A stretch of 64,000 nucleotides of DNA from Candidatus Poribacteria bacterium (GTDB taxonomy: Bacteria; Poribacteria; WGA-4E; WGA-3G), in assembly GCA_965205015.1 (NCBI GenBank), contig OZ242029.1, positions 4,736,001 through 4,800,000 on the forward strand, written 5' to 3'. The translations under genes were made by a program, and so were the position numbers. Each line of letters opens with the position of its first letter. The stretch's first letter is position 1. Positions 5,387-64,000 of the stretch are shown here, in pieces. Under the pieces are notes generated by a model. It saw only the letters and a program-made list of their open reading frames with translations, was not told where the DNA came from and made no database searches.

Positions 5387-6525
5387 CCCTCTATTACAAA
5401 GGCTTCCAACGCCTCTGTATCTATCACAATACCGAGTCCGGGCATATCATCAATGACGAAAGCCCCATCTTCGACGATCGGTTTTCGCGTGGTGATTTGC
5501 CCTTTCGACGCATACGCTTCAGGCGAATGCTCCATAATCAGGAAGTTGGGGATTGTCGCTGAGAATTGCACCGTTGCGGCGATCGAGAGGATCCCCCCGC
5601 CACCGATGTGCGGCGTTACCGGAATGTTATAGGTATCGGCGAGGCTTGCGATGCGTTTTCCCTCTGTGAGCCCCGTGCGGGCAATATCGGGCATAGTGAT
5701 GTCGCAGGCGCGACGTTCAAATACCTCCCGTAACTCATAACGGGTCCGTGTCCACTCACCGATAGCGACCGACATATCCAGTGCCTGTGCCAATGCCGCC
5801 TGTCCGGGAATGTCCTCCGGTGCCGTCGGCGACTCTAACCACATCACGTCCAATTCCTCAAGCCCGCGTCCGAGCCGTGTTGCTTCTGGGACGCTGTATT
5901 GGGTATGGAGGTCCACCATCAATTTGATCTCTGGACCGACCTGTTCACGCACCGCCGCGACGATTTCCAAAATCTCGGCGCGCCCGTGCGTCGAGTGAAT
6001 TTTTAACCCGCCGTACCCCTGTGAGACATGCTTAGCCGCCTGTACCGCCGCCGCTTCCGGCGTGCTGCCGCCAACACCGGCGTATAAGGGAATCCGATCC
6101 CGATAGCGTCCACCCAGCACCTTGTGAACGGGTTTCGCCGTCGCTTTCCCGATGATGTCCCACAGTGCGATGTCACACCCCGCGAGTGCATCAATAAAGA
6201 AGCCGGTATAGTGTCCACGCTCCCGCATCGCCGTAAACATCCGTTGCCAAAGATATTCTACGTCAAACGGGTCCTTTCCCATCAGTATCGGACGACACAG
6301 ATCCTCAACGATTGTTTTGGAGGTGCGCGGTGAAACGGGACTTTGTCCTTCGCCATACCCGACGATACCCTCTGACGTCGTAATCCGTACAACCATCGTC
6401 TCATGGTGGCGCGAGTAGATGGGGCGCCATCCTTCAGCGGGTAAGTAATAGCTGTCCGTGTGTTCTTCCGATGATTTCTCGGTTTGGTATCGGAGCGCGA
6501 ACGCTTCAATCTGTGTAATTTTCAT
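5383..6525 (-). CDS. Mandelate racemase/muconate lactonizing enzyme family (enolase superfamily dehydratase)
   Basis: DIALWDIIGK, LMVD, WLESP, GE, TPH, PGLG. Confidence 0.92.
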   Translation of the reverse strand: MKITQIEAFALRYQTEKSSEEHTDSYYLPAEGWRPIYSRHHETMVVRITTSEGIVGYGEGQSPVSPRTSKTIVEDLCRPILMGKDPFDVEYLWQRMFTAMRERGHYTGFFIDALAGCDIALWDIIGKATAKPVHKVLGGRYRDRIPLYAGVGGSTPEAAAVQAAKHVSQGYGGLKIHSTHGRAEILEIVAAVREQVGPEIKLMVDLHTQYSVPEATRLGRGLEELDVMWLESPTAPEDIPGQAALAQALDMSVAIGEWTRTRYELREVFERRACDITMPDIARTGLTEGKRIASLADTYNIPVTPHIGGGGILSIAATVQFSATIPNFLIMEHSPEAYASKGQITTRKPIVEDGAFVIDDMPGLGIVIDTEALEAFVIEG

Positions 6526-21568: not shown

Positions 21569-24091
21569 CTATTTTCGTATCAGCAGCTTCCGCGTAGAAC
21601 TGAACTCCCCAGCCGTGAGCGTGTAGAAATAGGTGCCGCTCGCAACAGGTTCACCCACTTCATTTTTTCCATCCCAATACGCCGCAAGGCTACGACTCTG
21701 ATAAATGCCTGCCGCCTGATACCCCAATACCAACGTCCGAATCAAGTTTCCGTCCATCGCGTAGATACGTATTGTCACATCCGCAGGGACTGCCAACTGA
21801 TACGGTATCCAGGTCTCCGGATTGAACGGGTTCGGATAGTTGGCAAGCAGTGCTGTTTCTTGTGGTGTTAGCGAGGCGAGGAGCGCCTCCAAAAAGCGGA
21901 TGCCCCTTTGCGATGTACTTTCTGTGCGGTTAAGTTGTTGCGCTTGTGCGAGCCACTGTGCGACCTCCATCCTTATCAGCGGGAACTCCAGATCGCGATT
22001 CCACGTTGAGGGTGCTGCGGCAGCGTCGCCAATTACTATTGCTACCAACACCAGATCCTGGATGTCCACGACACCATTCTGATTAACATCCGCAATGTTT
22101 TTGCCAGTCTGCCCAAAATTCGCTGACACCAACACTAAATCTAATATGTTAACCTCGCCATCCGCATTGGCATCTTCAGGCTGTGGTGAGGGTTCGTCCC
22201 CGTTCCCGTTCATATCTTCAGGTTTAGGGGGATCGGTTGAGTCAAACGGTGCCACGCGTTCGAGATCCCATAGCAGCACTGTTCCATCGTCGCTCCCACT
22301 TGCCAACGTCTTGCTATCCGAACTGAACACGACCTTAAAGACACTATCCTGATGTCTGGGGAGTACACGAGGTATACTCTGAATATCTCCCCCCGAGTTT
22401 ATCGCCCACAATTGAACGGCACCGTCCACACCGCCCGCTGCCAACAGCTCCCCATCTGGACTGAATGCCACGCTCGTGACAGCTTCCCAATGCCTGTCTA
22501 ACTGGAGCCAAGTTTCGTCCTCGTAGACAACCCCCAGCGGCTCTCCGACCCGATGCCCCCCATCCCATTCCAACACATCAATCGAGTTCAGCGACACTGA
22601 ATTCGCCCATCTTCCAACCGCCAGTTTCCGTCCATCTGGACTGAACGCTACACTCGTGCGAGGCAAGTCATCAGAGGAAAAGCCATGCTTTATCTCGGCA
22701 GGGGTATCCGTCTGTAAACTCCACACTTGAAGGGTACCGTCCGTACTTGCAGTCGCCAGTATCGGTAAATTCGGATGGAACGCCACACTTGTGACAGGTC
22801 CTGTATGCCCTTTGAGCTTCAATTGCCCAATCCGGCTGTCGGATGGGGAGATAATGATAGTCCCGTCCCATTGTCCAACCGCCATCCGCTTCCCATCCGG
22901 ACTGAATGCCAGGTTTGAGAGACGAAGTATATGGCTATTGAACTGATCCACTTCATGCCCCTCTCGCGGATTCCATACACGGATGGTACCGTCAACACTG
23001 GCACTTCCCACCCAGTCTCCATCCTCACTGTACGCGACATTCCAGATACATCCTGTATGCCCTATGAACGTATACTTGAGTTCATCAGCAGTTATGCCAT
23101 CGTAACTTATATCCTCATACAGGCTCATAGTATTGGCAGGATGTTCCCAATGGTCCAGCCGCAAGGCATAATCGTCCGGGAGACCGTGGGGATATTTGAA
23201 GTTGTCTCTCAAAGTCACCACCACCTCTATGCGAGGAACAGGATCAGGGAAATTAGGATTAGAATTGTGCGTCCTATAATAGTGTCCAGTTGCCTCAACC
23301 CTCTCATCTCCACTTACCTCTTGATACTCCACGAATCTCTGCCTGTAGGAGGGGCGGCCCGGTAGATCATAGGGCCCCAGTAGATTATATCTGTAGATGA
23401 TACCGTCCGTACTTGCACTCGCCATACGAGAACCATGGAACCCTAGGTTCATGACGCGTGGAACGGTGCGTCTGTTCTTCTGTTCATGCTCATGAACCTG
23501 AGCCATCTGTCTGAAAATCCCTTTTCGATTAGACCCGTAGATGACGGAAGAAAGCGATCCCGACTCGTTCCACTTCTCTACCACCGTCGCCACGTACTCA
23601 GCGGCCGGCTGAATCCATGCGATAGGGACATAAGTTGGAGGTGTCCCCCACCCACCAGACGTATGAACCAGTGTCTTCTGATCCGTTGCCATATCATACT
23701 TTATATGATAGATAGCACCAGATAAGTTGCCTAATGCTATGGTCTCTCCATCAGAAGTGATCACAACCCGACGGGCATCCCAAAAATCCCACCAAGGAAT
23801 ATGGGGCAACTTTTGGGCGGTGTCGGCATTGTAGATCCCAACACCTGAAGAAGTTATCAATATTAAACGTCTGCTATCTGGAAAATAGTCGAAATCCCAG
23901 AGGTAATTAACGATATGTCCATCTGACTCCCCCTCATCTACCCGTCCTTGGAGGTGAGGGCAACGAAACGTCAGCCCCAGCCGCGCCCTGGCACCCTCGG
24001 GTAAAAATAAATCTTGGGCAAAGGCAGGTAGCAGATAGAATGTTGCAATCAGAACGAGCATAGCGTAGATAAAAAACTTTTTCGTTTTCAT
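21569..24091 (-). CDS. Secreted WD40-repeat protein with dockerin and C-terminal FlgD/T9SS-like Ig domain
   Basis: Signal peptide. GHT...VAFSPDG...LW repeats. DANADGEVNILDL / DVNQNGVVDIQDL dockerin. LLANYPNPFNPETWIPYQL...WDGKN. Confidence 0.88.
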   Translation of the reverse strand: MKTKKFFIYAMLVLIATFYLLPAFAQDLFLPEGARARLGLTFRCPHLQGRVDEGESDGHIVNYLWDFDYFPDSRRLILITSSGVGIYNADTAQKLPHIPWWDFWDARRVVITSDGETIALGNLSGAIYHIKYDMATDQKTLVHTSGGWGTPPTYVPIAWIQPAAEYVATVVEKWNESGSLSSVIYGSNRKGIFRQMAQVHEHEQKNRRTVPRVMNLGFHGSRMASASTDGIIYRYNLLGPYDLPGRPSYRQRFVEYQEVSGDERVEATGHYYRTHNSNPNFPDPVPRIEVVVTLRDNFKYPHGLPDDYALRLDHWEHPANTMSLYEDISYDGITADELKYTFIGHTGCIWNVAYSEDGDWVGSASVDGTIRVWNPREGHEVDQFNSHILRLSNLAFSPDGKRMAVGQWDGTIIISPSDSRIGQLKLKGHTGPVTSVAFHPNLPILATASTDGTLQVWSLQTDTPAEIKHGFSSDDLPRTSVAFSPDGRKLAVGRWANSVSLNSIDVLEWDGGHRVGEPLGVVYEDETWLQLDRHWEAVTSVAFSPDGELLAAGGVDGAVQLWAINSGGDIQSIPRVLPRHQDSVFKVVFSSDSKTLASGSDDGTVLLWDLERVAPFDSTDPPKPEDMNGNGDEPSPQPEDANADGEVNILDLVLVSANFGQTGKNIADVNQNGVVDIQDLVLVAIVIGDAAAAPSTWNRDLEFPLIRMEVAQWLAQAQQLNRTESTSQRGIRFLEALLASLTPQETALLANYPNPFNPETWIPYQLAVPADVTIRIYAMDGNLIRTLVLGYQAAGIYQSRSLAAYWDGKNEVGEPVASGTYFYTLTAGEFSSTRKLLIRK

Positions 24092-24170: not shown

Positions 24171-25223
24171 CTACTGCTTCTCTTCAGGGAACGGCGCACG
24201 GATATCGTAACGTCCCTCAACAAATACGGGTAACTTTCCACCTTCAACCAACAGGTCAAGCGGGTTCGGGCGCGTTTTTAAGGGGAATGTAACAACATCC
24301 TGGAGGCGCAACGATTCATAAATCGCCATCAGGATTTCTATCGTGCAAAGTCCATGTCTGCCGGCATTGCGGTGTTCATCAACACTCCCTTCAATCCAGT
24401 CTAACATCTCATCAAATTGATTCGGTTCCCCTTGACGCGGTTCAATCACCTGCCAGCCTGCGGCTTTGCTGTTGAGCAATTCAATTGCTCCGTTGTCACC
24501 CCGACGGAGCTGCCCATCGTCGCCATAGACGACATCGCCTCGGAGGACGGGTTCCGGTAAATCGCTTTCGTAGATGCCGCGGATCCCGTTTTCAAAGCAG
24601 ATTTCCGCCATACACAGGTCTTCCGTTCTGACACGGCGTTCCCAGCGATCGGTTTTGCGTGCGACCTGACCGATGAGCCATAACGGATCCGGATCCCCGA
24701 GGATGTAGCGCATCTCGTCGATTTCATGGGTGCCACGGTTCAACAACCCGTGTCCGTCGCGACGGAGCATCGCCTGGGGTTGACCGATCGCGCCCTCTTG
24801 AATCAGGCGGCGTGCCTCGCAATTTTGGGGACTGAAACGCCGTTGGTGCCCAACGACCAATTTCACATTGTGCTTGTCACAGGCATCCATCATGTCCTGT
24901 GCGTCGCCAACCGAAGCCGCCATCGGTTTTTCGGTAATAACGCCGAGGACACCGCTCTCCGCAGCAGCGATCGTCGGTTCGGCACGGACGCTCTGCCACG
25001 TTGTAATACTGACGATGTCCAAGTCCTCTTTCTCGCACATTTCACCGAAATCGGTATAGTGGGTTGGGAGTGCGAACTCGTCTGCGAATTTCGCCGCGGA
25101 TTCTGCGCTAATGTCTGAAGCCGTGACAACTTCGACACGCCCGGTACTTGCCCAATTATTCGCATGGGAACGTCCCATGCCACCGCATCCAATAATGCCA
25201 ACACGATATGTTTTGTCTGCCAT
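24171..25223 (-). CDS. Gfo/Idh/MocA family oxidoreductase
   Basis: GIIGCGGMG, EKPMA, GHQRRF, GTHEID. Confidence 0.9.
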   Translation of the reverse strand: MADKTYRVGIIGCGGMGRSHANNWASTGRVEVVTASDISAESAAKFADEFALPTHYTDFGEMCEKEDLDIVSITTWQSVRAEPTIAAAESGVLGVITEKPMAASVGDAQDMMDACDKHNVKLVVGHQRRFSPQNCEARRLIQEGAIGQPQAMLRRDGHGLLNRGTHEIDEMRYILGDPDPLWLIGQVARKTDRWERRVRTEDLCMAEICFENGIRGIYESDLPEPVLRGDVVYGDDGQLRRGDNGAIELLNSKAAGWQVIEPRQGEPNQFDEMLDWIEGSVDEHRNAGRHGLCTIEILMAIYESLRLQDVVTFPLKTRPNPLDLLVEGGKLPVFVEGRYDIRAPFPEEKQ

Positions 25224-25356
25224 CTGTCTCACCTTGTCCTCGCTTTTAAATTTACAGTAACTCCCTCGCCAGTAAAAGCAAGAGTTGTAGAAACACATTT
25301 TAGCAAAAGCCGCGTATCAAGGCAAGCAAATTGTAAGAAAAGATTCAGAAAGACGA

Positions 25357-25385
25357 TTGACAAAATTGTGCTGTTGGTATAGAAT
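25357..25385 (+). promoter_or_regulatory. sigma70 promoter for leader 1 and the LRR gene
   Basis: TTGACA-17 bp-TAGAAT. Confidence 0.75.
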
Positions 25386-25456
25386 GTTTCCTGAGACGGG
25401 TTCCGGTTCCGAAGAGATATCCATGATACATCTTTTTTGATGAGAAAGGAGTCAAA

Positions 25457-25600
25457 ATGTCCGACATACGAAACGAGCACGCCAATATTGAAAGTGTCCA
25501 GTACTTCTATCGGTCCTCTAACATTTTATCCATGACACAGGTTGAGAACGAAGCTTTAGCACCCCACTCTGTCTGCCCCCCCCCACTTTACACCCGTTAA
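25457..25600 (+). CDS. 47-aa upstream leader peptide ending PPPLYTR* (candidate attenuator)
   Basis: AAAGGAG RBS. MSDIRNEHANIESVQYFYRSSNILSMTQVENEALAPHSVCPPPLYTR*. C9 tract at 25576-25584. Confidence 0.6.
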   Translation: MSDIRNEHANIESVQYFYRSSNILSMTQVENEALAPHSVCPPPLYTR

Positions 25601-25625
25601 GCACATTTCACATAAGACTTCATCC

Positions 25626-25660
25626 AACTCGGACAGCGGTTGCTGCTGCCCGAGTTTTTT
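25626..25660 (+). terminator. Intrinsic-terminator-like hairpin between the leader and the LRR gene
   Basis: CTCGG-A-CAGCGG-TTG-CTGCTG-C-CCGAG followed by TTTTTT. Confidence 0.65.
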
Positions 25661-25661
25661 C

Positions 25662-28600
25662 ATGCCTAAACGCATTTTAGGGGTGTGCAGGCTATTTTTT
25701 TATCGCATGAAAACGACACAATTTCTCCTCACTTTTTTCATTGGGCTCCTTTTTCTAGCACCGCTGCACCCGGCGCGCCCGCACACCGTAAATGGTAACG
25801 CGAATCACAACGTGGACATTCCGGATACAGTTCTCCGTGGTGTTATCGAAGCCCGACTCAACAAGTCTTCTGGAGCAGACATCACCGCCACCGAGATGGC
25901 AACCTTGGATGAAGTCGTCAAAGCCGACCAAAACATTCATGATCTAACGGGTTTGGAGCATGCAACCGCTTTACAAAAGGTGCGCATCGGGCGCAATCGC
26001 ATACGATTTCCGCCCAGCGGAAGAACGCCACAAAACACCATTTCGGATTTGAGCCCCCTTACGAACCTAACAACGTTGATCGATCTGGACTTTACCACAC
26101 ATCGGATTACAGACATCTCGCCCCTTGCGACTTTAACAGCGTTGACAGACTTAACGCTTTCATACAATTCCGAGCTCACAGATATTTCGCACCTGCGGGG
26201 GTTAACAAGCGTGAAAAATCTTTTCCTTAACGCCTGTAACATCACGGACATAACAGCGATCGGAACGCTAACAAACTTGCGAGTGCTTGAGCTTGGGCGA
26301 AATTGGAACCTCCGGGATATCTCACCCTTGACGAATTTAAGGGATTTGAGAGTTTTGAAGCTTAATAGTACCGCCATCACCCCTGAAGGTCTATCCGCCG
26401 TGCTCCCGGCGTTAGAAGGTGCGAAGCGGCAAGGATCCGGACCAACGTATTGGGCGGGTTTAGACATTACGAACACTGACATCTCGGATCTCTCTGTGTT
26501 AGACAGGATACCCGACGGCGTGGTCCTGCACAACCTGTACCTGCAATACATGGGCACCAGCGCCAGTGAGACTCGCTTTTTTCTACTGAAGGATCTCACC
26601 CCCTTGGTGGATCTCATGAACAAGGGAAAGGTCATCGGTTCAGACACCAATATTCAATTGCGGTGGAACTTCAGACTGGACTATCCGTCCCTTTACGAAG
26701 ACATACCCGCCCTCTTAGCCAGTGTTCGTGGTGTCAGCTATCTTTCGTCTACGCCCGGGCTTGAGAGGGAATCTCCGACAGATGAACCTTACAGAGGCCA
26801 TCCCAGAATACGCCACACGTTTGTCGTGCGTGCCATTAATGACACCCCTTTTGGAAGCTATCCAATTGAGATAACTCGGAACCCTACATTCAACGGGGTG
26901 CCTGTTACGTGGAAGGTTACCGCGCCCGATGACACCCTAACGGAGACGAATGTCGTTACAGGTGACGATGGATTGGCAAGCGTCACCATTACCCTCGGAG
27001 ATGATGGGGAAACGCATACCGTGGAAGCCGTTGTCCCTGCGAACGAACGCGCAGCCACGGAGGGGCCTTCACACCCTGAACTCAAAGTGACCTTCACCGC
27101 CATAGCAGATCAGACAGTCGAACCGCCGCCGAGACCTACCCCACCACAGCCGCCCCGACTCCCCCGACTGACGGTGACGTTCGAGGACTACCCCGAAGAG
27201 AAGCCAGTTGATGAATTGACGCTCACGATCAGGTTTTCCGAACCCGCCATCGGTTTCGAGACGGAGGACATTACCGTAGAAACAGAACTCACCAGTGGGA
27301 AAGGGGATGCCACCTTGACGGACCTGACCCCCGAAACACCAATACACCCCGATAGACCCGAGCCTGACCCCATACAGACCTACACTGCAACCGTGGCACT
27401 CCCCGACCGCGCAAGAGGCACCGTGACACTCATCGTCCGAGAAAATGCCGCAATCACCCCGGCAACTGCCCCTGTGGAGAAGAGGGGTCCCGCTTCAAAT
27501 ACCGCCTCCGACCCCATCGAGTTCGGACGCAGACGTGTGATCGTCTGTCCACCATCTGTCGTGCCTATGGAGACAGTCATCTTCAATGAGTTCCGCAACG
27601 CTGAAAACGATACACACGACTGGATCGAACTCAAGAACATCTCCGATGAAGACGTGTCTCTCGCCGAATGGGAGATCAGTCTTGTCGTCCCGCACGCCAT
27701 CAGTCCGGCGGCACCGCAACAGGAAATCTTCGCAATGGATCGGGATATCGTCGCCTTTGGAGACTACACACTCCCCGCAGGAGGCATCCTGCTGATCGCC
27801 AATACCCACCCCAGTGAGACGGATCTGATACGCGGGCAGGACATCGAAAATCCCAACTATAATCCCGATCTCCTCCCCCACTATCTCATCGCACCGGAGA
27901 TGAAGTTGCCGAGTTCATTTTTGCTCATCCTCCGGAGTGTGCGCGATAAGAACGGTCAACACGAAGGCTTTGAAGACCTCGCAGGCGATTACCACAAAGA
28001 CGATGTCAACTACGCTACCAACATCTGGCCCCTGCTCTGTACCCCTGTCTATACCGGCACGGAGGCACGGTTCACCGTAGGCGACATCTATCAGCGGGTC
28101 ATGGTGCCAAAGGTTTCGTCGAGGACCCTGAACACCACGCCACAGCCCGAGAAACGCGGCTACCTTGAGGGCGCCTGGATGTTAAGTGTCTATCACAGTG
28201 GATTAGGCTATGACCCCGAGGCACCCCCTGAAACGAGTCTCGGCACGCCGGGGTATCCGCTGCCGGGACAACCGACTGAAAAGGGATGGGGAAACATCAG
28301 TTTTTCTGAGGTGATGTATGCGACGAACGATAACGGAGGACTCTCGCAGTGGATAGAACTCTACAACAACACCTCCGAGATCGTGGACCTCACGGATTGG
28401 GAGCTCATGATTGAGGCACGCGACAGCAAAACCGTCCGACGCTGGACATCGCTTCGGTTCAAATCGCTACACATCAGACCGAACGCAACCGTGCTACTGG
28501 TGGGGCGGAACGCCCGAACCTCAGGGAACATCCCTTCCGATCGGATTTACGATCTCTACCGTCGCAACATTGCGGCGTTTCGGCGACTCGGCGAGGGTGC

Positions 28601-29264
28601 GAACCGATTCCTCGGATGGGAGGGGTTTGCGCTGCGGTTGTTCTCCCCCGACGGCACTTTGGTGGATGTCGCGGGGAACCTTGATGGACGGCAAACGCAC
28701 GATAAACCGAAGTGGGAGTTGCCCGATGGCTGGACGAAAACCGGGACGCGTACCTCGTTGATCCGGGGGTATGATGCGCGTGTGCCACGGTTAGGGACGC
28801 TGTCGGGCAGTTTCGTACGGGCGGCGGATACAGCGTTGCTCAAGGGCTATTCGTATTGGGGACTTCCGACCGATAATGGGACCCCGGGGTATCGGCGGGG
28901 GAGTCCACTGCCTGTAACGCTGTCGAGTGTGCGTGCGGATCGTGCCGAGGGCGGGGTCGTAGTGAACTGGACGACGCAATCGGAGATGGAGAACGCCGGG
29001 TTCTATGTGCTGCGAAGTCAGAACAGCAAAACGGGATTCGTGAAAGTGAGCCCGACGCTGATTCCTGGAGCAGGCACGACTGCCGAACGAAGCACGTATA
29101 CCTACCGAGATACCACGGTGCAACCGAATGTGCCGTATTATTATCGGCTCGAAGAGGTCTCGTTATCGGGGGAACGTCGGGTAATGGCGACTGTGCGGCT
29201 ACGGGGACATCTCTTCGCTGCGGGAAAGACGCTTTGGAAGTGGGCGGATGTGAAACGGGAATAG
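25662..29264 (+). CDS. Large secreted internalin-like LRR + Ig-like + lamin-tail domain protein
   Basis: IPDTVLR cap. ISDLSPLTNLTTL LRRs. Pro-rich linker. FNEF..DWIELKN and FSEVMY..QWIELYN lamin-tail domains. LPVTLSS...WTTQSE C-terminal Ig. True start could be 25707 or upstream via frameshift. Confidence 0.85.
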   Translation: MPKRILGVCRLFFYRMKTTQFLLTFFIGLLFLAPLHPARPHTVNGNANHNVDIPDTVLRGVIEARLNKSSGADITATEMATLDEVVKADQNIHDLTGLEHATALQKVRIGRNRIRFPPSGRTPQNTISDLSPLTNLTTLIDLDFTTHRITDISPLATLTALTDLTLSYNSELTDISHLRGLTSVKNLFLNACNITDITAIGTLTNLRVLELGRNWNLRDISPLTNLRDLRVLKLNSTAITPEGLSAVLPALEGAKRQGSGPTYWAGLDITNTDISDLSVLDRIPDGVVLHNLYLQYMGTSASETRFFLLKDLTPLVDLMNKGKVIGSDTNIQLRWNFRLDYPSLYEDIPALLASVRGVSYLSSTPGLERESPTDEPYRGHPRIRHTFVVRAINDTPFGSYPIEITRNPTFNGVPVTWKVTAPDDTLTETNVVTGDDGLASVTITLGDDGETHTVEAVVPANERAATEGPSHPELKVTFTAIADQTVEPPPRPTPPQPPRLPRLTVTFEDYPEEKPVDELTLTIRFSEPAIGFETEDITVETELTSGKGDATLTDLTPETPIHPDRPEPDPIQTYTATVALPDRARGTVTLIVRENAAITPATAPVEKRGPASNTASDPIEFGRRRVIVCPPSVVPMETVIFNEFRNAENDTHDWIELKNISDEDVSLAEWEISLVVPHAISPAAPQQEIFAMDRDIVAFGDYTLPAGGILLIANTHPSETDLIRGQDIENPNYNPDLLPHYLIAPEMKLPSSFLLILRSVRDKNGQHEGFEDLAGDYHKDDVNYATNIWPLLCTPVYTGTEARFTVGDIYQRVMVPKVSSRTLNTTPQPEKRGYLEGAWMLSVYHSGLGYDPEAPPETSLGTPGYPLPGQPTEKGWGNISFSEVMYATNDNGGLSQWIELYNNTSEIVDLTDWELMIEARDSKTVRRWTSLRFKSLHIRPNATVLLVGRNARTSGNIPSDRIYDLYRRNIAAFRRLGEGANRFLGWEGFALRLFSPDGTLVDVAGNLDGRQTHDKPKWELPDGWTKTGTRTSLIRGYDARVPRLGTLSGSFVRAADTALLKGYSYWGLPTDNGTPGYRRGSPLPVTLSSVRADRAEGGVVVNWTTQSEMENAGFYVLRSQNSKTGFVKVSPTLIPGAGTTAERSTYTYRDTTVQPNVPYYYRLEEVSLSGERRVMATVRLRGHLFAAGKTLWKWADVKRE

Positions 29265-57759: not shown

Positions 57760-58653
57760 GTGAATATGGAAAGGGAAGAGATCATCCATAGATTTCAGAA
57801 CTTGAATGTATGGAAAAGAGGACATAAAGTAGCACCCCACAAGCCTCTTTTAGTCTTGTACGCAATTGATAAATTGCGACGTGGAGAAAACCAACTTATA
57901 CCATACACAGAAGTAAAGGAGAAACTTTCAGAATTACTGATCAAATTTGGAACAAGCAAGTCGGAACCCCGTCCTCACTATCCGTTTTGGCGCCTACGCC
58001 AAGATAATGTTTGGAAAGTAACCGACGATCATCTTATTAAGGAAACCGACAGCGGAGATGCCCACGTCACTGACCTGAAGCTCCACGGTGTCTCTGGAGG
58101 ATTTCACAAAGCAATTGCTCATCACCTACAGAACGATTTCAGCCTTACTTTAGAAATAAGCGAAAGCATGCTTGATCATTTTCGTTATTCAAAACACAAG
58201 GATATTTCACAGGCTGTTGGGATTGAGGACCTGTCTCATGTGCCCAAACGACAAAGACGAGAGTGGAACTTTCCCAAAAACGTACGGAAAGCCTATGAAT
58301 ATAAATGTGCAGTTTGTGGTTTTGATGTAAAATTGCACCACCGACATGTTGCGCTAGAAGCCGCACATATTCAGCCCCTTAAAAAAGGTGGACCTGATAT
58401 AGCAGAAAATGGCTTGGCTCTTTGTTCACTACACCATGAACTATTTGATCGTGGAGTTTTCACGTTGTCGGAGCAATTAAAAGTACTCGTGTCTAAGTAC
58501 GCAAATGGGTCAACGGGCTTTGATAAATGGTTGATGCGTTTTCATGGAAAGAAAATCAATCTTCCGCAGAGTCGAATGTATTACCCTCGCATCAGCTTTA
58601 TAGACTGGCATTTCAGAGAAGTATTCAAAGACCCTTATCGCGAAAAAACTTGA
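57760..58653 (+). CDS. Phosphorothioated-DNA-binding (SBD)-HNH restriction endonuclease-like protein
   Basis: APHKPLL and YPFWRL sulfur-binding-domain motifs. CAVCG, LEAAHI, NGLALCSLHH.FDRG HNH. Confidence 0.8.
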   Translation: MNMEREEIIHRFQNLNVWKRGHKVAPHKPLLVLYAIDKLRRGENQLIPYTEVKEKLSELLIKFGTSKSEPRPHYPFWRLRQDNVWKVTDDHLIKETDSGDAHVTDLKLHGVSGGFHKAIAHHLQNDFSLTLEISESMLDHFRYSKHKDISQAVGIEDLSHVPKRQRREWNFPKNVRKAYEYKCAVCGFDVKLHHRHVALEAAHIQPLKKGGPDIAENGLALCSLHHELFDRGVFTLSEQLKVLVSKYANGSTGFDKWLMRFHGKKINLPQSRMYYPRISFIDWHFREVFKDPYREKT

Positions 58654-58679
58654 CATTTAACACAAATTTGTGCTAAAAT
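58650..58679 (+). promoter_or_regulatory. sigma70 promoter (extended -10) for leader 2 and the ssp-like operon
   Basis: TTGACA at 58650, TGcTAAAAT ending 58679. ATG 6 nt downstream suggests a leaderless transcript. Confidence 0.65.
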
Positions 58680-58685
58680 CTAAAT

Positions 58686-58838
58686 ATGGAAAATCGGGAT
58701 ACAAATACCACAGCTAAAACACTACACCTGCTTAACCGCAATCGCTGCTCATGGCGATTCTTGATGCCCTTAAAGTCTGCTTGTATACAAGATTTTAACA
58801 AGTCGACTCGCCCCCCCCCCCCACTTTACAAACGATAA
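58686..58838 (+). CDS. 50-aa upstream leader peptide ending PPPPLYKR* (candidate attenuator)
   Basis: MENRDTNTTAKTLHLLNRNRCSWRFLMPLKSACIQDFNKSTRPPPPLYKR*. C12 tract at 58811-58822. Confidence 0.55.
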   Translation: MENRDTNTTAKTLHLLNRNRCSWRFLMPLKSACIQDFNKSTRPPPPLYKR

Positions 58839-59021
58839 GCAATATACTTCATAAGACATTGACAGCATCTGCCAATGTTCTGTTTCCGCGCCCGCGTGTC
58901 CTCTCTCGCGATGATCCTCTATGCGGGCTGTTTTTGTTGTCCTATCTTCTACCGTTACTCTCAATTTCTCTCTCATGTTGCTGCTTGCTCCAGAGGTTGC
59001 TACATTTTGGAGGAACGAAAT

Positions 59022-59957
59022 TTGAGTAACGCCTACACAACCGCACCTCAGACGATTCATCCATCTTTTTCGGGACACCAAACGTTTCCCTTCCGGTATA
59101 CCTGGCTCAAAAAAGGCGTTGATGCCGTGACAGAAAATCCGACCGTCTTTTCATCGGAGAACGCCTCTGTCAGTTTAGGTGTTGGAAAAAACATGGTCAG
59201 TTCTATTCGGCATTGGTGTCGAGTATCAAGACTCATTGAGACAATAAAGCCAGTACCGTATCAGCGCGGGCAATTTGCCCCCACTGCACTCGGAAAAGCC
59301 ATTTTTGACGATAAAGAAGGATTTGACCCATATCTTGATGATCCAGCCACGCTGTGGCTAATTCATTGGCAAATTGCAACAAATACCGATCCGGCAACCG
59401 CGTGGTATTGGGCATTTAATGTTTCAAGGGGCAACCAATTCACACCCCAAATATTCGCACGAGAACTGTCCAAATGGGCACAGGAAAAGAAACGATCCAT
59501 GCGGTCGGTTTCTGATAATACACTCCGACGAGATGTCAACTGCTTTATTCGAACCTACTGTCAGTCCCGTCACACCGATGTCGTTGTCGAGGAGACCCTT
59601 GATTGCCCTCTCGTTGAACTCAATTTAATTGCCGAATTGCCAGACGGTAATGGATATGAATTCCAGCGAGGTGATAAAAAAACACTACCAATCGAAACCG
59701 TTGCGTGGGCACTGGATACGTTTTGGCAGCTTTACTTCCCACGGCAAGAAGCACTCTCGTTCTCAGAATTGATGTATGCGCCATCAAGTCCGGGACGGGT
59801 TTTCAGGTTAGACGAAGACACAATGACAGTATATCTTGAGAACCTCGCACAACTCACGGAAGGTGCGTTGCAATATGATGAAACAGCAGGTCTAAAGCAG
59901 GTCTATCGACATAGAGATTTAAACCAGATGGAACTTTTAAAGGAATATTATGGGTAA
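59022..59957 (+). CDS. DUF4007 family protein (SspB-like)
   Basis: FSGHQTFPFRYTWLKKG, LGVGKNMV.SIRHW, DPYLDD..TLWLIHW, CPLVEL. GGAGG RBS before TTG at 59022. Confidence 0.88.
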   Translation: MSNAYTTAPQTIHPSFSGHQTFPFRYTWLKKGVDAVTENPTVFSSENASVSLGVGKNMVSSIRHWCRVSRLIETIKPVPYQRGQFAPTALGKAIFDDKEGFDPYLDDPATLWLIHWQIATNTDPATAWYWAFNVSRGNQFTPQIFARELSKWAQEKKRSMRSVSDNTLRRDVNCFIRTYCQSRHTDVVVEETLDCPLVELNLIAELPDGNGYEFQRGDKKTLPIETVAWALDTFWQLYFPRQEALSFSELMYAPSSPGRVFRLDEDTMTVYLENLAQLTEGALQYDETAGLKQVYRHRDLNQMELLKEYYG

Positions 59958-62900
59958 CGTCCGTTTGTCAGAACTTTTTCACATTACAGAACGTTTTCAG
60001 CGTTCGGTCCATCTGGCGCGCGATTTTTATACAGAAAACGCTTTAGATGGCTACGTCGTGACTGCCAAAGCACGGGAAACCCTCACTCGGCTCATCACAG
60101 CACAAGAAAACGGCGCGACATCAAGAGCCTGGTCTCTTACCGGACCCTACGGTTCAGGGAAATCCGCATTTGCGCTGTTCGCTGCAAAACTACTCGGAAA
60201 TTCTGAAGCACCGACAACCCGTCAGGCACTCGATCTGCTGGAACATGAAGATCCCTCGCTATATGAACGATTTATCAGCATAAACGGCAATGGAAATGGG
60301 ACCCCATCTGGATTCTGTCCGGTGCTTATCTCTGGCGAACGCGCACCAATCATACTTGCCCTTCTACGCGGTTTAGAACACGGACTCAAGACTTTCGGAA
60401 TTTCGTCCTCTAGTGCGCTTCAACGGAAGATCAGAAATCTGTTGAAAATCGCCGCAAACGGCACACCGCCACATGCATCTGAAATCACTTCGCTTTTCGA
60501 GTCGGCGGCGCGCACCGTTCGGAAAAACGGCGGCACTGGTCTATTGTTAGTAATTGATGAACTCGGCAAGTTCCTTGAGTACACCGCGCAATCTCCAGCA
60601 AAAGGCGATGTGTTTGTCCTACAAACTCTCGCCGAATTTGCAACACGTAGCGATCAGACCCCGCTATTTTTGCTGACGATTCTGCATCAGGCTTTTGAAC
60701 AATACGCAAACAAGATAGCAAAATCGCAACGTGAAGAGTGGACAAAGGTCCAAGGACGGTTTGAAGACATCGCCTTTGTAGAACCTGCAGAACAGACCAT
60801 TCGGTTGATCGCTGCCGCTATCCAGAATACATTAACTGACAAAACAGAAAACCTATCTATAGTACCCAAACTTTATCCAACTGAATTAAATCTCACACCC
60901 CACCAATTTGAGGACACTGAATTCGATCAACTCCTCCAAAACTGCTTACCACTCCACCCGACCATAGCACTTATTATCGGTCCGATCTTCAGACGATTCG
61001 CCCAGAATGAGCGTTCCCTTTTCGCCTTCCTTAACGCAAGTGAACCTTATGGACTCCAAGACTTTCTGTCAAACCAGCATTATAATGGCAGCGTGCTACC
61101 GATATTCTCGATCGCCGACCTATATGACTATCTCAATACCACCATAGGGAATAGATTAGCCGACTCAAGCGTAGGTAATAGGTGGGTGGAGATTGAAATG
61201 GCTATTAACGGAATCACTGATCCATCACCGACAACCATTAAACTCATTAAGACGATAGGGTTACTCGGTATTACCGGAGAAGTAAGCATTAATCTGAAAG
61301 CCTCAAAGCACGTTCTCCGTTATGCCTTAGATGACTGCACTGAAGGATTCACAGAGAAATTTGAAACCGCACTGGATACGCTAACAAGACGCAAGATCGT
61401 TATCCACCGTCCCCGAAACGACACCTATGCCCTTTGGGAAGGCAGTTACATTGACATTGAAGCCAAACGCCATGAGGCGGAACAACATCTTGATCCAAAC
61501 CAAAGTCTCACAACTTATCTTTCAACGCTCGCGCCCCCTCGACCTCTCATCGCCCGCCGACACCTGTTCGAGAAGGGGACACTCCGCTATTTCGCCCTTC
61601 GTTACACCGACGCTGAAAATTTCGACGCGTCGCTCAGTGAACCACTCGGCGATGCAGACGGACTCGTTCTCTATGCCCTCCCCGCAGACGAACATGAAGG
61701 TAGGCACCTCATTGAAAAAGCGAAGGCCAAAGCCGTTGTAAACCGTAAAGAGATCCTGATTGCAATCCCGCATTCCACCAGCTTTCTGCACGACGCTGTT
61801 ACCGAACTCGCCTGTTTACAGTGGATCTCGGAAAACACACCGGAACTCGACGGCGATCCAGTCGCAAGGCGAGTCCTTTCACGCCGACGGTTAGAAGCGG
61901 AACAAAATGTAACCGAGCAGTTCGCAGCCATCTTTGGTAACGACAGCGAGAATACTTGCAAATGGTTTCACAAAGGACAAAAAGTAAATATCAATTCTCA
62001 ACGCGAAAGAAATGAACATCTATCAAAAATCTGCGATGTGGTTTACCACGAAACCCCCATTATTCTGAATGAACTGATCAATCGGCGTAAAATCTCCGGC
62101 ACTGTAACAACCGCACGCAAGAGATTAATTCAAGCGATGCTCGAAAACGGCGATCAAGAACACCTCAGCATTACTGGCTATCCTCCTGAAATGAGTATCT
62201 ATCGTTCCCTCTTATGGAACACAGGGATACACCGCGAAGTTGAAGGTGTATGGGGATTCCACCCACCACATCCAGAGGATAAAAACGAAATATCGCGCAC
62301 ATGGCAAGCGATCGAGACGTTTCTTGGCAAATGCGAAGGTGAGAGACAACCTGTCGAGAAACTCTATGAAAACCTGATGGCACCACCCCTGGGCGTGCGA
62401 AACGGTCCTCTACCTATCCTCTTGTGTGCCGCGATGCACCATTACAAAACAGAAATAGCACTTTATGAAAACGGCTCCTTTATCGCAAATTGGTCAATGC
62501 CGGTCTTTGAAAGGCTCCTTAAAGCACCGCAACAATTTGAGCTGAAACGGTTTCGGATGACGGGTATCCGCTCGGATCTGTTTTCACAGTTTTCAGAGGT
62601 ATTCAATCAATCGACAGACACCCAAAAACCCGATCTGTTGACAGTCATCACACCGCTCATGCGCGCCATCGCACAACTCCCGAAGTACACTTTGGGGACA
62701 CAAGAATTGCGTGATAACGCGAAAAATCTCCGTAAAGTTGTGCTGAATGCGCGTGAACCTGACGAACTCCTCTTCAAACAATTGCCGGAGGCTTTTGGCT
62801 TTTCTGCCTTTAGCGAGGAGGCGGCAACAGATTCAAGGACTATTTCGGAATTTTTCAGGACACTCCAAGATGCATTGTCCGAGTTAGAACAGGCGTATGA

Positions 62901-63366
62901 CATCCTACTGAATTCGGTTGAACAACTGCTTGCAGAGGCGTTCAGTTTAACACCGACGGCAGAAAAACTCCGCGTAGAACTGGTCAAAAGAGCCGAACCT
63001 TTGTTAGCGGTAACAATTGAAATGGATCTTAAAGGATTTTTAATCCAAGTTTGTAGCGGCGGACACGCTTTCAGCAGTTGGCTTGAAGCCATCGCGACCT
63101 ATCTCGCCAAAAAACCGCCTCCAGCGTGGATAGAGGCAGATAAAGCCCAATTTGAGATTAATCTCTCTCAAATCGCAAGAAAGTTTCGGCACTTTGAAGC
63201 GGTATCCTATGAAAAAGGGAAGCACATAGTCGACGAACAAACCGCTGCCATAGAACACGAGATCAAAAAAGTTTTCGACAAATTCAACGTAGACAACAAC
63301 CCGGAACTCCATATCGCAATTTTAGCACGAATTTCACAAAAATGGATACAACACCTTGACGAATAG
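59950..63366 (+). CDS. Large P-loop ATPase (SspC-like)
   Basis: Walker A GPYGSGKS, Walker B LLVIDELGKFLE, EW.KVQGRF, PLHP, QNERSLF.FL. Overlaps the DUF4007 stop. Confidence 0.85.
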   Translation: MGNVRLSELFHITERFQRSVHLARDFYTENALDGYVVTAKARETLTRLITAQENGATSRAWSLTGPYGSGKSAFALFAAKLLGNSEAPTTRQALDLLEHEDPSLYERFISINGNGNGTPSGFCPVLISGERAPIILALLRGLEHGLKTFGISSSSALQRKIRNLLKIAANGTPPHASEITSLFESAARTVRKNGGTGLLLVIDELGKFLEYTAQSPAKGDVFVLQTLAEFATRSDQTPLFLLTILHQAFEQYANKIAKSQREEWTKVQGRFEDIAFVEPAEQTIRLIAAAIQNTLTDKTENLSIVPKLYPTELNLTPHQFEDTEFDQLLQNCLPLHPTIALIIGPIFRRFAQNERSLFAFLNASEPYGLQDFLSNQHYNGSVLPIFSIADLYDYLNTTIGNRLADSSVGNRWVEIEMAINGITDPSPTTIKLIKTIGLLGITGEVSINLKASKHVLRYALDDCTEGFTEKFETALDTLTRRKIVIHRPRNDTYALWEGSYIDIEAKRHEAEQHLDPNQSLTTYLSTLAPPRPLIARRHLFEKGTLRYFALRYTDAENFDASLSEPLGDADGLVLYALPADEHEGRHLIEKAKAKAVVNRKEILIAIPHSTSFLHDAVTELACLQWISENTPELDGDPVARRVLSRRRLEAEQNVTEQFAAIFGNDSENTCKWFHKGQKVNINSQRERNEHLSKICDVVYHETPIILNELINRRKISGTVTTARKRLIQAMLENGDQEHLSITGYPPEMSIYRSLLWNTGIHREVEGVWGFHPPHPEDKNEISRTWQAIETFLGKCEGERQPVEKLYENLMAPPLGVRNGPLPILLCAAMHHYKTEIALYENGSFIANWSMPVFERLLKAPQQFELKRFRMTGIRSDLFSQFSEVFNQSTDTQKPDLLTVITPLMRAIAQLPKYTLGTQELRDNAKNLRKVVLNAREPDELLFKQLPEAFGFSAFSEEAATDSRTISEFFRTLQDALSELEQAYDILLNSVEQLLAEAFSLTPTAEKLRVELVKRAEPLLAVTIEMDLKGFLIQVCSGGHAFSSWLEAIATYLAKKPPPAWIEADKAQFEINLSQIARKFRHFEAVSYEKGKHIVDEQTAAIEHEIKKVFDKFNVDNNPELHIAILARISQKWIQHLDE

Positions 63367-63378
63367 AGGGAGAAAAAC

Positions 63379-64000
63379 ATGGAACAAAAAACACGTCACC
63401 TGCTCGGTCTCTCCGGTGGTAAAGACAGTTCCGCGCTTGCCGTTTACATGCGGGACAGGGTGCCAGAGATGGAATACTTCTTCTCTGACACGGGTAAGGA
63501 ATTGCCAGAGACTTACGCGTTTCTGGATCGATTAGAGGTATTCCTCGGCAAACCGATTGCACGTCTCAACATGGAGCGGGATGCCAGCGAGAACCGCGAT
63601 TTCGATCACTGGCTGACGCTCTACGGAGGCTTGTTGCCGTCGTCTCAAGTGCGATGGTGCACTGTTAACCTTAAGATAAGACCTTTTGAGGAATACGTCG
63701 GCGAAGACAAGGCGTATAATTACGTCGCCATCCGTGCCGATGAAGACCGTGTCGGTTATAAACCGCTGAAAACCGCCGCCCTCCGCAACATCGAGCCGAA
63801 GTACCCGTTCAAAGAGGATGGCATCACCAAAGAGGATGTCTACCGAATTCTGGAGGAAAGCGGTCTCGGTCTACCTGATTATTACAACTGGCGGACGCGT
63901 TCGGGGTGTTATTTCTGTTTTTTCCAGCGCAAATCCGAGTGGGTGGGACTCTTAGAGCAGCATCCAGACCTCTTTGAACTCGCCAAGGCATACGAGAAAT
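63379..64000 (+). CDS. PAPS reductase family protein (SspD/DndC-like), 3' truncated
   Basis: Absent from the ORF track. MEQKTRHLLGLSGGKDS, DTGKE, RWCT, RSGCYFCFFQ. Confidence 0.9.
   Translation, partial: MEQKTRHLLGLSGGKDSSALAVYMRDRVPEMEYFFSDTGKELPETYAFLDRLEVFLGKPIARLNMERDASENRDFDHWLTLYGGLLPSSQVRWCTVNLKIRPFEEYVGEDKAYNYVAIRADEDRVGYKPLKTAALRNIEPKYPFKEDGITKEDVYRILEESGLGLPDYYNWRTRSGCYFCFFQRKSEWVGLLEQHPDLFELAKAYEK

Follow-up and report, generated by a model that had tools for sequence, protein, structure and literature searches.

We have found in Candidatus Poribacteria a DNA element that is probably a phase-variable leader-peptide attenuator built on a conserved poly-C contingency cassette, a reading drawn from sequence comparison. 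The element stands twice in the window, i.e. the whole 64,000-nucleotide stretch of DNA that was analysed. An earlier note on this DNA had reported that its core recurs, and this was confirmed: the window contains exactly two occurrences of the 15-mer C7-ACTTTACA (at 25578 and 58816), with 0.04 expected and none of 100 shuffles containing two matches. For the first copy, the same note had listed a promoter, a ribosome-binding site, a 47-aa uORF, a C9 tract, a hairpin with T6 and a 1200-aa gene, all of which are present. The features of copy 1 are:

25357..25385, + strand: promoter TTGACA-17-TAGAAT, 11/12 matches to the consensus
25444..25450, + strand: Shine-Dalgarno AAAGGAG, 6 nt 5' of the uORF ATG at 25457, as read from the sequence
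25457..25600, + strand: leader uORF of 47 codons in the frame-0 state, ending CPPPLYTR-stop, TAA at 25598-25600
25576..25584, + strand: poly-C tract C9, putatively the hypermutable switch
25585..25618, + strand: conserved flank ACTTTACA-N5-TAAG, followed by the TTCACATAAGAC box
25626..25660, + strand: intrinsic terminator, hairpin 25626-25656 with T6 at 25655-25660
25662..29264, + strand: putative regulated gene for an LRR, lamin-tail and Ig-like exported protein of 1200 aa, with LRR_4, LTD and Big_1 domains

The promoter scan of 25200-25800 gave no + strand promoter-like site besides this promoter. Up to the tract, the ATG-initiated ORF of copy 1 has 39 codons (null probability 0.083). The terminator hairpin begins 25 nt past the uORF stop, overlaps the T6 and has a folding energy of -18.6 kcal/mol (z -3.4, equalled by 1 of 200 shuffles). 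The true start of the downstream gene is likely to be the ATG at 25708, ahead of a signal-peptide-like sequence. The post-tract frame F1 is free of stops into the 25662-29264 ORF, and in one further copy (L026) F1 likewise enters the gene. The uORF was considered as the gene's true N-terminus and rejected in that role: it is separated from the gene by just 21-28 codons, a signal-peptide start of the gene's own is present, and two such cases among about 45 copies are within chance.

Copy 2 lies, as the earlier note had said, before an unrelated operon, whose genes are sspB, sspC and sspD. Its features are:

58650..58679, + strand: promoter TTGACA-18-TAAAAT with a TG extension, 11/12 matches
58686..58838, + strand: leader uORF of 50 codons in the frame-0 state, ending TRPPPPLYKR-stop, TAA at 58836-58838
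58795..58802, + strand: upstream box TTAACAAG, 8 nt 5' of the tract
58811..58822, + strand: poly-C tract C12
58823..58857, + strand: conserved flank ACTTTACA-N5-TAAG, followed by the TTCATAAGAC box
58855..58935, + strand: small hairpin 58855-58879 and terminator hairpin 58890-58928, then UGUUUUU
59009..59029, + strand: sspB start region, with Shine-Dalgarno GGAGG at 59009-59013, start TTG at 59022-59024 and TAA at 59027-59029
59022..63999, + strand: putative regulated operon of sspB (59022 to 59957), sspC (59950-63366) and sspD (63379 to the window end)

The uORF mRNA of copy 2 would be leaderless or nearly so, because its ATG lies only 7 nt after the -10 box. In neither window copy did the promoter scans give a further + strand promoter-like site from the terminator to the gene. 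By their profile matches (SspB 1.7e-99, SspC E=0, SspD 4.2e-96; domains DUF4007 and PAPS_reduct), sspBCD is the DNA phosphorothioation module of the Ssp defence system. That the whole architecture of promoter, uORF, tract, hairpins and gene is also present in copy 2 had been overlooked. The earlier statement that the two uORFs share nothing besides the core holds for the window copies, but not for the wider family, in which leaders are homologous.

The core was scanned for with one exact pattern in one genome per species (species-representative genomes), and copy numbers per genome are lower bounds. It was found at 57 loci, of which 53 are Poribacterial or cluster with Poribacterial orthologues, while the other four look like chance C6 matches; the dispersed, lineage-specific cis-regulatory module suggested before is borne out for Candidatus Poribacteria. 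That the 18 specified bases are invariant among these matches follows from the search pattern itself, and variant cores lie outside it, e.g. ACTTTATA in L018 and ACTTCACA, which is implied by PPPTSQK alleles. Leader-type copies account for 47 of 59, and all eight non-leader Poribacterial matches are inside ORFs. The flanks form 14 unrelated clusters, which we took as independent, and the element is kept across many Poribacterial species. Downstream of it, or around it, are genes for exported LRR, cadherin, fn3 and LTD proteins, for signal-peptide proteins without a known family, for the Ssp module and for restriction-modification enzymes. These belong to classes that are usually under phase variation.

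The earlier note had recognised no described family, and none was found: the whole window has no Rfam match at the gathering threshold, and at E up to 10 the two regions gave one chance-level snoRNA only. Phage and plasmid collections contained no blastn match to the 101-nt core region of copy 2. In the literature, no account of phase variation in Poribacteria or sponge symbionts was found among the matches listed, which were one unrelated methods review and, more broadly, the best 12 papers.

The proposed succession of a translated uORF, an intrinsic terminator and a regulated gene also held up, the first two recurring far above chance. In 13 of the 14 independent clusters, an ORF with an ATG start and 36 or more codons extends up to the tract, against a null probability of 0.055-0.174 per locus. 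Its ATG lies 92-184 nt 5' of the tract (mostly 109-156), with an AGGTGA or GGAGG box before it in most copies. Terminators were called strictly (dG at most -12, at least five T, within +14 to +200 of the tract), and were found in 41 of 44 evaluable leader copies, including both window copies, versus 29 of 600 random control windows from the same loci. A search of the genome and its relatives had been suggested as a check that the motif sits in uORFs followed by hairpins; this is what the leader copies show, but the core also occurs inside restriction-modification ORFs in other frames.

The tract measures 6-16 C and differs among orthologues with near-identical flanks, for example C10 in L008 vs C9 in L054, C6-C10 in the MKSRN group and C8-C14 in the ssp group; the assemblies compared here come from different species or strains, and MAG homopolymers can be one base wrong. 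Among the 47 leader copies, the current state is frame 0 and short in 28, another short frame in 7, an end at +65 in 2 and a long frame (at least +120) in 10. The frame-0 TAA lies at +10 or +13 past the tract, and the terminator stems begin at +36 or later. A non-zero frame is open for at least 123 nt past the tract and through the terminator in 45 of 45 evaluable leader copies. With a 93-nt threshold, shuffles gave such frames a null probability of 0.23-0.79 per cluster and a product of 10^-4.4 over the 14 clusters; since stop codons are scarce in the downstream DNA, the strength of this statistic is only moderate. Among the ssp orthologues, the long frame reaches the sspB start in 11 of 11, via F1 in some and F2 in others; in copy 2, F2 (one extra C) terminates at the TAA at 59027-59029. 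Because both alternative frames are long at many loci and one is short at others, the on/off logic varies between loci. The genes of the MKSRN group start 200-600 nt past the motif, which leaves no translational coupling there.

These features suggest the following mechanism. A strong promoter would drive a short uORF with a homopolymeric C tract at its 3' end, and slipped-strand mispairing in replication would alter the tract by single bases, presumably at a high rate within a population, thereby changing the frame in which the ribosome exits. With the uORF in frame 0, as at C9 of copy 1 and C12 of copy 2, the ribosome would meet the TAA of the flank 10-13 nt past the tract. Being released 23 nt or more ahead of the terminator stem, it would allow the terminator to form, and the gene would be transcribed only by weak read-through. 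At least one of the two other frames is open through the terminator; there, a translating ribosome would block the hairpin and raise expression, so that these tract states would be the on states. At the ssp loci the long frame terminates at the sspB start codon, and translational coupling would reinforce the effect there. Assigned in this manner, 11 of 12 ssp orthologues are in the would-be off state, although they encode a defence module.

The earlier note had instead proposed a polyproline-stalling attenuator, in which an EF-P or Pro-tRNA dependent pause at PPP decides whether the terminator forms. Such an arrangement has relatives in Salmonella mgtL and mgtP, Pro-codon leader ORFs in which the RNA structure downstream depends on how far the ribosome has moved. 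The Pro codons of these leaders serve as a physiological sensor in a fixed frame, whereas those of Poribacteria form a homopolymer that varies in length and frequently lies out of frame. The conservation of both uORF and terminator fits stalling, as does the predicted fold, in which tract and flank are unpaired, and frame 0, read as PP(P)(P)LYxx-stop, is the commonest state at 28 of 47 leader copies vs one third expected. However, the other 19 enter the tract outside the PPPLY frame, and the number of prolines ranges from 2 to 5, with only PP in some frame-0 copies (L003, L013 and L041). Substitutions in the uORFs are spread evenly over codon positions with no third-position excess, and the upstream TTAACAAG box is read in different frames in different uORFs. 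The same core also occurs inside DNA-methylase and restriction genes, where it is read as PPHFT or PPTLQ, in other frames and in one case on the opposite strand. Moreover, a ribosome stalled at PPP covers only ~15 nt downstream, short of the stems. We therefore consider stalling as the deciding step quite unlikely. Of the earlier interpretation, the dispersed lineage-specific cis-regulatory module stands, whereas a conserved polyproline peptide sensed through EF-P or Pro-tRNA is not supported, the tracts being of 6-16 C, the frames mixed and the uORFs without codon-position bias.

These results indicate that the conservation is in the DNA and not in the peptide. Because of the variable tracts, the mixed frames, the even substitutions and the copies in other frames or in reverse, the controlling variable is most likely tract length, i.e. 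reading frame, rather than proline decoding. PPP stalling may add something in the frame-0 state.

Inside ORFs of type III mod and type IIG restriction-modification enzymes, the cassette would act as an ordinary frameshift on/off switch. One such gene is intact in L029 (1096 aa) and split at the tract in its orthologue L025 (789 + 394 aa), and L032 vs L045 and L015 vs L034 are likewise pairs of intact and split alleles. L044 and L049 have the cassette in reverse orientation within the 5' part of the coding sequence for an N6_N4 methylase, and the L044 methylase is frameshifted. Cassette alleles are a scattered minority among the mod homologues, where seven labelled rows of a FastTree tree (489 columns) need five changes, at least four of them forced by supported branches. 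The type IIG homologues are similar, with five of 119 cassette-like (recognised by eye) and likewise scattered.

The scatter of these alleles would suit a relic of mobile or gene-converted sequence without a regulatory role, its core owed to common descent or hitch-hiking. We regard this as highly improbable, given the openness of the uORFs and the enrichment of terminators, the frames open to the sspB start across divergent orthologues and the retention of the element across many Poribacterial species. In addition, long C/G runs are otherwise absent, with 0 observed outside the cassette against 7.8 expected in 469 kb sampled; in the window itself, the only two C/G runs of at least 8 are the two cassette tracts. 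The cassette was also rejected as a target of a diversity-generating retroelement, for which near-identical upstream regions would be expected, as the window copies share the core only and the upstream regions are unrelated between the 14 clusters.

Non-heritable slippage, in which RNA polymerase (or the ribosome on CCC) slips at the tract, stimulated by an upstream nascent-RNA hairpin, and a fixed mixture of frames sets the expression ratio, would explain how restriction-modification genes that are frameshifted, and ssp operons that are mostly off, might nevertheless be expressed. Tracts of 6-16 C, often with a hairpin or palindrome a few nt 5' of them, are consistent with such slippage, and hairpin-stimulated transcriptional slippage is documented at a T5C5 site of a Roseiflexus IS630 element (PMC5009743). 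However, the hairpin documented there is immediately adjacent (PMC5009743), whereas those seen here are weak, differ by subfamily and stand 0-24 nt from the tract. The reverse-orientation copy would give the RNA a G run, and the length differences are directly visible in the DNA. Slippage of this kind is unlikely as the main explanation, and it is compatible with a phase-variable attenuator.

Nucleotide conservation extends over ~60 nt around the tract and includes three TTnACA-like boxes. Several explanations of this pattern were tried and rejected. The TTAACAAG and TTCACAAG boxes are not target-site duplications, as each is conserved separately, with no co-variation within a copy. An internal promoter on either strand is not apparent, the hexamer spacings (5, 20 or >25 nt, by inspection) being unsuitable and the scans having found no extra promoter. 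Pairing within ACTTTACA-N5-TAAG was discarded because no co-variation links the N5 positions to the flank.

The same conservation, in a region that is single-stranded in predicted folds, would be expected of a site for a trans-acting factor, such as a G-rich small RNA or a protein that binds tract and flank, with tract length tuning the binding. A precedent is RepG, which acts on the G-repeat of the Helicobacter tlpB leader (PMC8295292). The H. pylori tlpB/RepG pair resembles the Poribacterial element in that the downstream gene is tuned by a homopolymer of variable length in the mRNA leader, but it needs a trans-acting RNA and is not known to involve a uORF or a terminator (PMC8295292). For the Poribacterial copies, we consider such a site very unlikely. 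No candidate gene for a complementary RNA emerged, the non-leader Poribacterial matches are all inside ORFs, a site at the RNA level leaves the reverse-orientation copy unaccounted for, and a conserved uORF with open alternative frames would be superfluous.

The phase-variable attenuator model itself gives no account of the conserved ACTTTACA-N5-TAAG and its neighbouring boxes, or of the recurrence of the cassette in unrelated genes. A flank of about 45-60 bp is common to every long tract sampled. It is conceivable, and we put it forward tentatively, that C tract and flank together are a portable contingency cassette, the sole place that tolerates long C/G runs, which has been repeatedly installed in leaders and ORFs, in any frame and either orientation, and makes an arbitrary gene phase-variable. 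The flank would then act on the DNA, either promoting slippage or directing insertion or conversion by a dedicated mechanism.

To our knowledge, phase-variable leader-peptide attenuation has been demonstrated experimentally only for S. gallolyticus pil1. There, the leader peptide is lengthened by a change in repeat number, with the result that ribosomes disrupt a premature terminator upstream of pil1 (Danne et al. 2014, PMC3894217). The pil1 locus and the Poribacterial loci share the order of promoter, leader ORF with a variable repeat, intrinsic terminator and surface-structure genes (PMC3894217). In both, the in-frame leader stops before the terminator (by 39 bp in pil1, by at least 23 nt in Poribacteria), out-of-frame leaders end within or beyond it, and the majority state is the short one, of low expression in pil1 and putatively so here (PMC3894217). 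The pil1 repeat is the pentanucleotide GCAGA, in contrast to the homopolymeric C tract of Poribacteria (PMC3894217). Unlike pil1, a locus of a Gram-positive pathogen, the Poribacterial cassette is multi-copy, stands before unrelated genes throughout a candidate phylum and is also found inside ORFs. There is no sequence relationship between the two, and the pil1 mechanism is experimental while that of Poribacteria is inferred.

In Campylobacter, Neisseria, Haemophilus and Helicobacter, G/C tracts of ~8-13 bases in ORFs, including those of type III mod genes, switch genes by reversible frameshifts (PMC11955535). As in these contingency loci and phasevarions (PMC11955535), surface and restriction-modification functions would be switched in Poribacteria, and long tracts are confined to such loci in the DNA sampled. 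The Poribacterial tracts differ in sharing a flank, and most copies would work through a uORF and a terminator instead of inside the gene. We know of no common flanking sequence around the tracts of those four genera. Mycoplasma vlp/vsp genes and the poly-C promoters of Bordetella fim have a conserved homopolymer module before several surface-protein genes, and are like the Poribacterial loci in that one upstream module is attached to different surface-protein genes in one genome. Their tracts are in promoters and change initiation, and their genes are paralogous, whereas the Poribacterial tract is translated and followed by a terminator, and the genes are unrelated.

Phase variation is, as far as we know, described almost entirely from pathogens. 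Here, a pil1-like logic seems to serve as a stock component that recurs many times in a genome, throughout an uncultured phylum of sponge symbionts. The cassette is placed before genes for eukaryote-like surface proteins (LRR, cadherin, fn3), which are thought to mediate host interaction, and before or inside phage-defence genes. If the proposed switching is true, it predicts stochastic heterogeneity of surface and immunity in a mutualistic symbiont, and would account for the many such genes that look frameshifted or attenuated in MAGs. The cassette would also be a simple annotation marker for switchable genes. Finally, the conservation of the flank raises the question of whether sequence context or a dedicated mechanism can create and spread hypermutable tracts.

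Every element that the earlier note had described for copy 1, from the promoter, ribosome-binding site and 47-aa upstream ORF (uORF) to the C9 tract, the hairpin with T6 and the 1200-aa gene, could be located, and the description is accurate. The downstream ORF carries LRR_4, lamin-tail and Ig-like domains. Copy 2 repeats this architecture, which was absent from the earlier note.

Features of the two cassette regions and neighboring genes
21569-24091, minus strand: WD40-repeat protein, 840 aa, near the LRR gene
25357-25385, plus strand: copy 1 promoter, TTGACA-17-TAGAAT (11/12 consensus match)
25444-25450, plus strand: copy 1 AAAGGAG, read from the sequence
25457-25600, plus strand: copy 1 uORF, 47 aa, ending CPPPLYTR-stop (translation)
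25576-25584, plus strand: copy 1 C9 tract
25626-25656, plus strand: copy 1 hairpin (-18.6 kcal/mol, z -3.4), overlapping T6 at 25655-25660
57760-58653: HNH nuclease gene (PADLOC HNH, 2.2e-20), directly 5' of the sspBCD leader
58650-58679, plus strand: copy 2 promoter (promoter scan)
58686-58838, plus strand: copy 2 uORF, 50 codons, ending TRPPPPLYKR-stop
58811-58822, plus strand: copy 2 C12 tract

The 15-mer C7-ACTTTACA occurs exactly twice in the 64-kb window against 0.04 expected, and the recurrence of the core before an unrelated operon is real. Two hairpins lie 3' of the copy 2 tract, with a U-run after the second, and are followed by sspB, sspC and sspD (PADLOC E-values 1.7e-99, 0 and 4.2e-96); neither sspA nor sspE was seen within the window. 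The copy 2 uORF begins only 7 nt past the -10 box, so that little or no untranslated leader would precede it on the transcript. In the ssp orthologues L014, L030, L039, L027 and L033, the promoter-ATG distance is about 90 nt greater than in copy 2, and there is no obvious Shine-Dalgarno sequence. The synteny of the HNH nuclease gene upstream of the leader is kept in ssp orthologues, and the nuclease may act with the Ssp module as its restriction partner. The WD40 protein adds a further eukaryote-like repeat protein, which fits a Poribacterial source for the window.

A single pass over a species-representative genome collection with the pattern C6-ACTTTACA-N5-TAAG matched 57 loci; about 17 matches would be expected by chance for its 18 specified bases, by our own arithmetic. 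Forty-nine of the 57 records are titled Candidatus or uncultured Poribacteria, and four titled only uncultured bacterium (L002, L032, L034 and L044) group with Poribacterial orthologues. The remaining four have C6 only and no common context: L010 (inside a ketosynthase gene of a Porticoccaceae MAG), L021, L022 (Bacteroidales) and L031 (Neomarinimicrobiota). The element belongs to a family that spans the Poribacteria, as the earlier note's lineage-specific module implied, and is undescribed in the libraries searched, with no Rfam match for the window or for either copy region. Together with the window's two, there are 59 copies: 47 leader-type, six in sense orientation inside restriction-modification ORFs, two in reverse inside a methylase ORF and four chance-like. 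The 18 specified bases are invariant in the scan matches because the pattern requires them; protein-level variants and a variant in L018 show that the core is conserved, not invariant. This L018 variant is a second cassette on the minus strand, C16 (6965-6980 in plus-strand coordinates), about 3.7 kb upstream of the first copy, with a one-base variant core, ACTTTATA...TTAAG, which places two cassettes within 4 kb; the exact-pattern scan is blind to such cores.

Leader-type copies share their anatomy more often than chance would allow. Clustering on flank similarity, with the core masked, sorts the 47 of them into 14 clusters, and the uORFs and hairpins that the earlier note proposed seeking at the relatives' matches are present in most. 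In 13 of the 14 clusters, the tract is reached by an ORF of 36-61 codons that starts with ATG (dinucleotide-shuffle probability 0.055-0.174 per locus), while L043 has 42 open codons before the tract without an ATG. The uORF ATG lies 92-184 nt before the tract, mostly 109-156 nt, and in most copies is preceded by a TTGACA/TATAAT-type promoter and then an AGGTGA or GGAGG box. A strict terminator, defined as a hairpin of -12 kcal/mol or lower ending within 3 nt of at least five T at +14 to +200, was found in 41/44 evaluable leader copies versus 29/600 random windows from the same loci, three copies being left out because the locus end was too close. Leaders of one subfamily share homology over the whole stretch between ribosome-binding site and terminator. 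The genes that follow include sspBCD (12 orthologous loci) and those for LRR, LTD, cadherin, fn3 and TonB_C proteins; many downstream proteins have no Pfam family, and their N-termini are signal-peptide or lipoprotein-like. The tract at L016 (minus-strand offset 2435 for the motif) is preceded by an ORF with a signal-peptide-like product and followed by an LRR/dockerin ORF; here, it may lie within the gene's own 5' coding region, with no separate leader.

Short palindromes with GTTAAC-like arms occur 0-24 nt 5' of the tract (e.g. L038, L050, L052, L024 and L042), and compensatory changes of their inner bases between leader copies point to a possible hairpin or cruciform beside the tract; these pre-tract hairpins are weak and non-uniform across subfamilies. 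Some 60-80 nt past the ATG, uORF interiors (e.g. L055, L051, L042 and L056) carry CCTCA...TGAGG versus ACACC...GGTGT, and such apparent compensatory stem changes suggest RNA structure inside the uORF.

The earlier note had read copy 1 as a polyproline leader-peptide attenuator, and in 28 of the 47 leader copies the uORF does enter the PP(P)LY frame and stop at the TAA of the flank. In the other 19, it meets the tract in one of the other two frames. The tract varies from 6 to 16 C across copies and from C8 to C14 among the twelve ssp loci. Its length differs even between orthologues that can be aligned at every flank base, with C10 in L008 and C9 in L054, and C6 to C10 within one ten-member group. 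Codon positions in aligned uORFs collect substitutions evenly (10/8/15, 30/24/25, 28/20/27, 33/33/34, 3/2/6 and 12/9/14), and the upstream TTAACAAG box encodes FNK in one set of uORFs and LTS in another. The uORF is kept open, the peptide is not conserved, and conservation is at the nucleotide level with a length-variable C run. These observations, with the occurrence of the core in other frames and on the other strand within ORFs, argue against a polyproline function of the conserved core at the peptide level. What stands of the earlier interpretation is the lineage-specific leader ORF/terminator module; the polyproline sensor does not.

The frames suggest a different logic. Frame 0, the PP(P)LY frame, ends at TAA 10-13 nt past the tract (by motif construction), and predicted terminator stems start at +36 or later. 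At least one other frame is open for at least 123 nt, i.e. through the terminator, in 45/45 evaluable leader copies; the shuffle null at a 93-nt threshold is high (0.23-0.79 per locus; product over 14 clusters 10^-4.4) because the downstream DNA is stop-codon-poor. Independent support comes from the ssp loci, where the long frame reaches the sspB start in 11/11 orthologues with enough sequence, being F1 in some and F2 in others across 132-204 nt of diverged sequence, and stop codons TGA and TAA close the other two frames no more than 5 nt from the TTG or ATG where sspB begins. Copy 1 at C9 is in the short state; one more C moves the uORF end to 25678-25680, beyond the terminator, and with one C fewer the frame runs into the LRR ORF. 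Copy 2 at C12 is also short, whereas C13 extends the uORF to a TAA at 59027-59029, 2 nt past the sspB start codon, and C11 gives another short frame with its stop at +29. Present states among the 47 leader copies are 35 short (28 frame 0, 7 other), 2 intermediate and 10 long. F1 past the copy 1 tract (25585-25710) is stop-free, so that a tract of C8 or C11 would join the uORF to the gene, and L026 has the same fusion frame into an fn3 gene; these junctions are probably due to chance because the gap is only 21-28 codons.

This arrangement resembles pil1 of Streptococcus gallolyticus. Danne et al. (2014, PMC3894217) showed that the peptide changes in length when its leader gene gains or loses GCAGA repeats: the in-frame peptide stops 39 bp before the terminator, with low expression in about 70% of cells, and out-of-frame peptides end within or past the terminator, where the ribosome blocks terminator formation and expression is high. 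Every sequence-level feature of the pil1 design is present in the Poribacterial module, although its repeat unit is a homopolymer rather than a pentanucleotide, and the module is therefore filed as phase-variable leader-peptide attenuator-like. A phase-variable poly-C leader-peptide attenuator is the best-supported explanation and, judged from sequence and this analogy, a moderately probable one.

Inside restriction-modification genes, the core is translated as PPHFTN(D/N)K in the intact alleles L029, L032 and L015; in the split alleles L025 and L034, the PPTLQ frame would be needed. In L044 and L049, the cassette runs antisense to an N6_N4 DNA methylase gene and places a G7 run in the 5' part of its coding sequence; the L044 gene is frameshifted at that run. 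By analogy with homopolymeric tracts in Campylobacter, known contingency or phasevarion-type switches (PMC11955535), the in-ORF copies would be ordinary switches of this kind. Nearly all of about 108 anchored homologues of the type III-like mod have a 21-residue linker (82 of the 91 rows used for the tree); the longer linker is the translated cassette in P0005, P0020, P0070, P0084 (in part), L032 and L045. On a FastTree phylogeny of those 91 rows, which left out rows shorter than 1000 aa or without anchors and did not include L045, the seven long-linker rows need five changes, at least four forced by supported branches, and shuffles average 6.9. The cassette is a secondary acquisition in this family, and the native sequence just 5' of the site already resembles the cassette's TTAACAA box. 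About 0.9 kb past the cassette-bearing mod of L045 lies an IS1595-family transposase gene (5337-6227). Likewise, the linker ahead of the FHW motif is short in most of 119 anchored type IIG homologues, and P0124, P0204, P0208, P0211, P0159 and L029 have a longer, cassette-like one, recognized by eye. The type IIG homologue P0163 carries a glycine-rich run at this site, where other alleles carry the cassette, which could be a translated G-rich tract. From the long-linker distribution in both families, it follows that the cassette has been gained, lost or exchanged repeatedly at fixed sites in unrelated genes.

Poribacterial DNA outside the cassettes, 469 kb in all from 53 loci and the window, contains no C/G run of at least 8, against 7.8 +/- 2.7 in shuffles (minimum 3 in 100 shuffles), and six runs of at least 7 versus 33.6 expected. 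All runs of at least 8 in the sampled Poribacterial DNA are flanked by ACTTTACA, the sole exception being the second L018 copy. The conserved flank of this portable cassette may favor slippage, direct insertion or conversion, or be bound by a factor, and this side of the element is potentially much more novel. In the open-access literature searched, no paper came up that connects phase variation with Poribacteria or with sponge symbionts.
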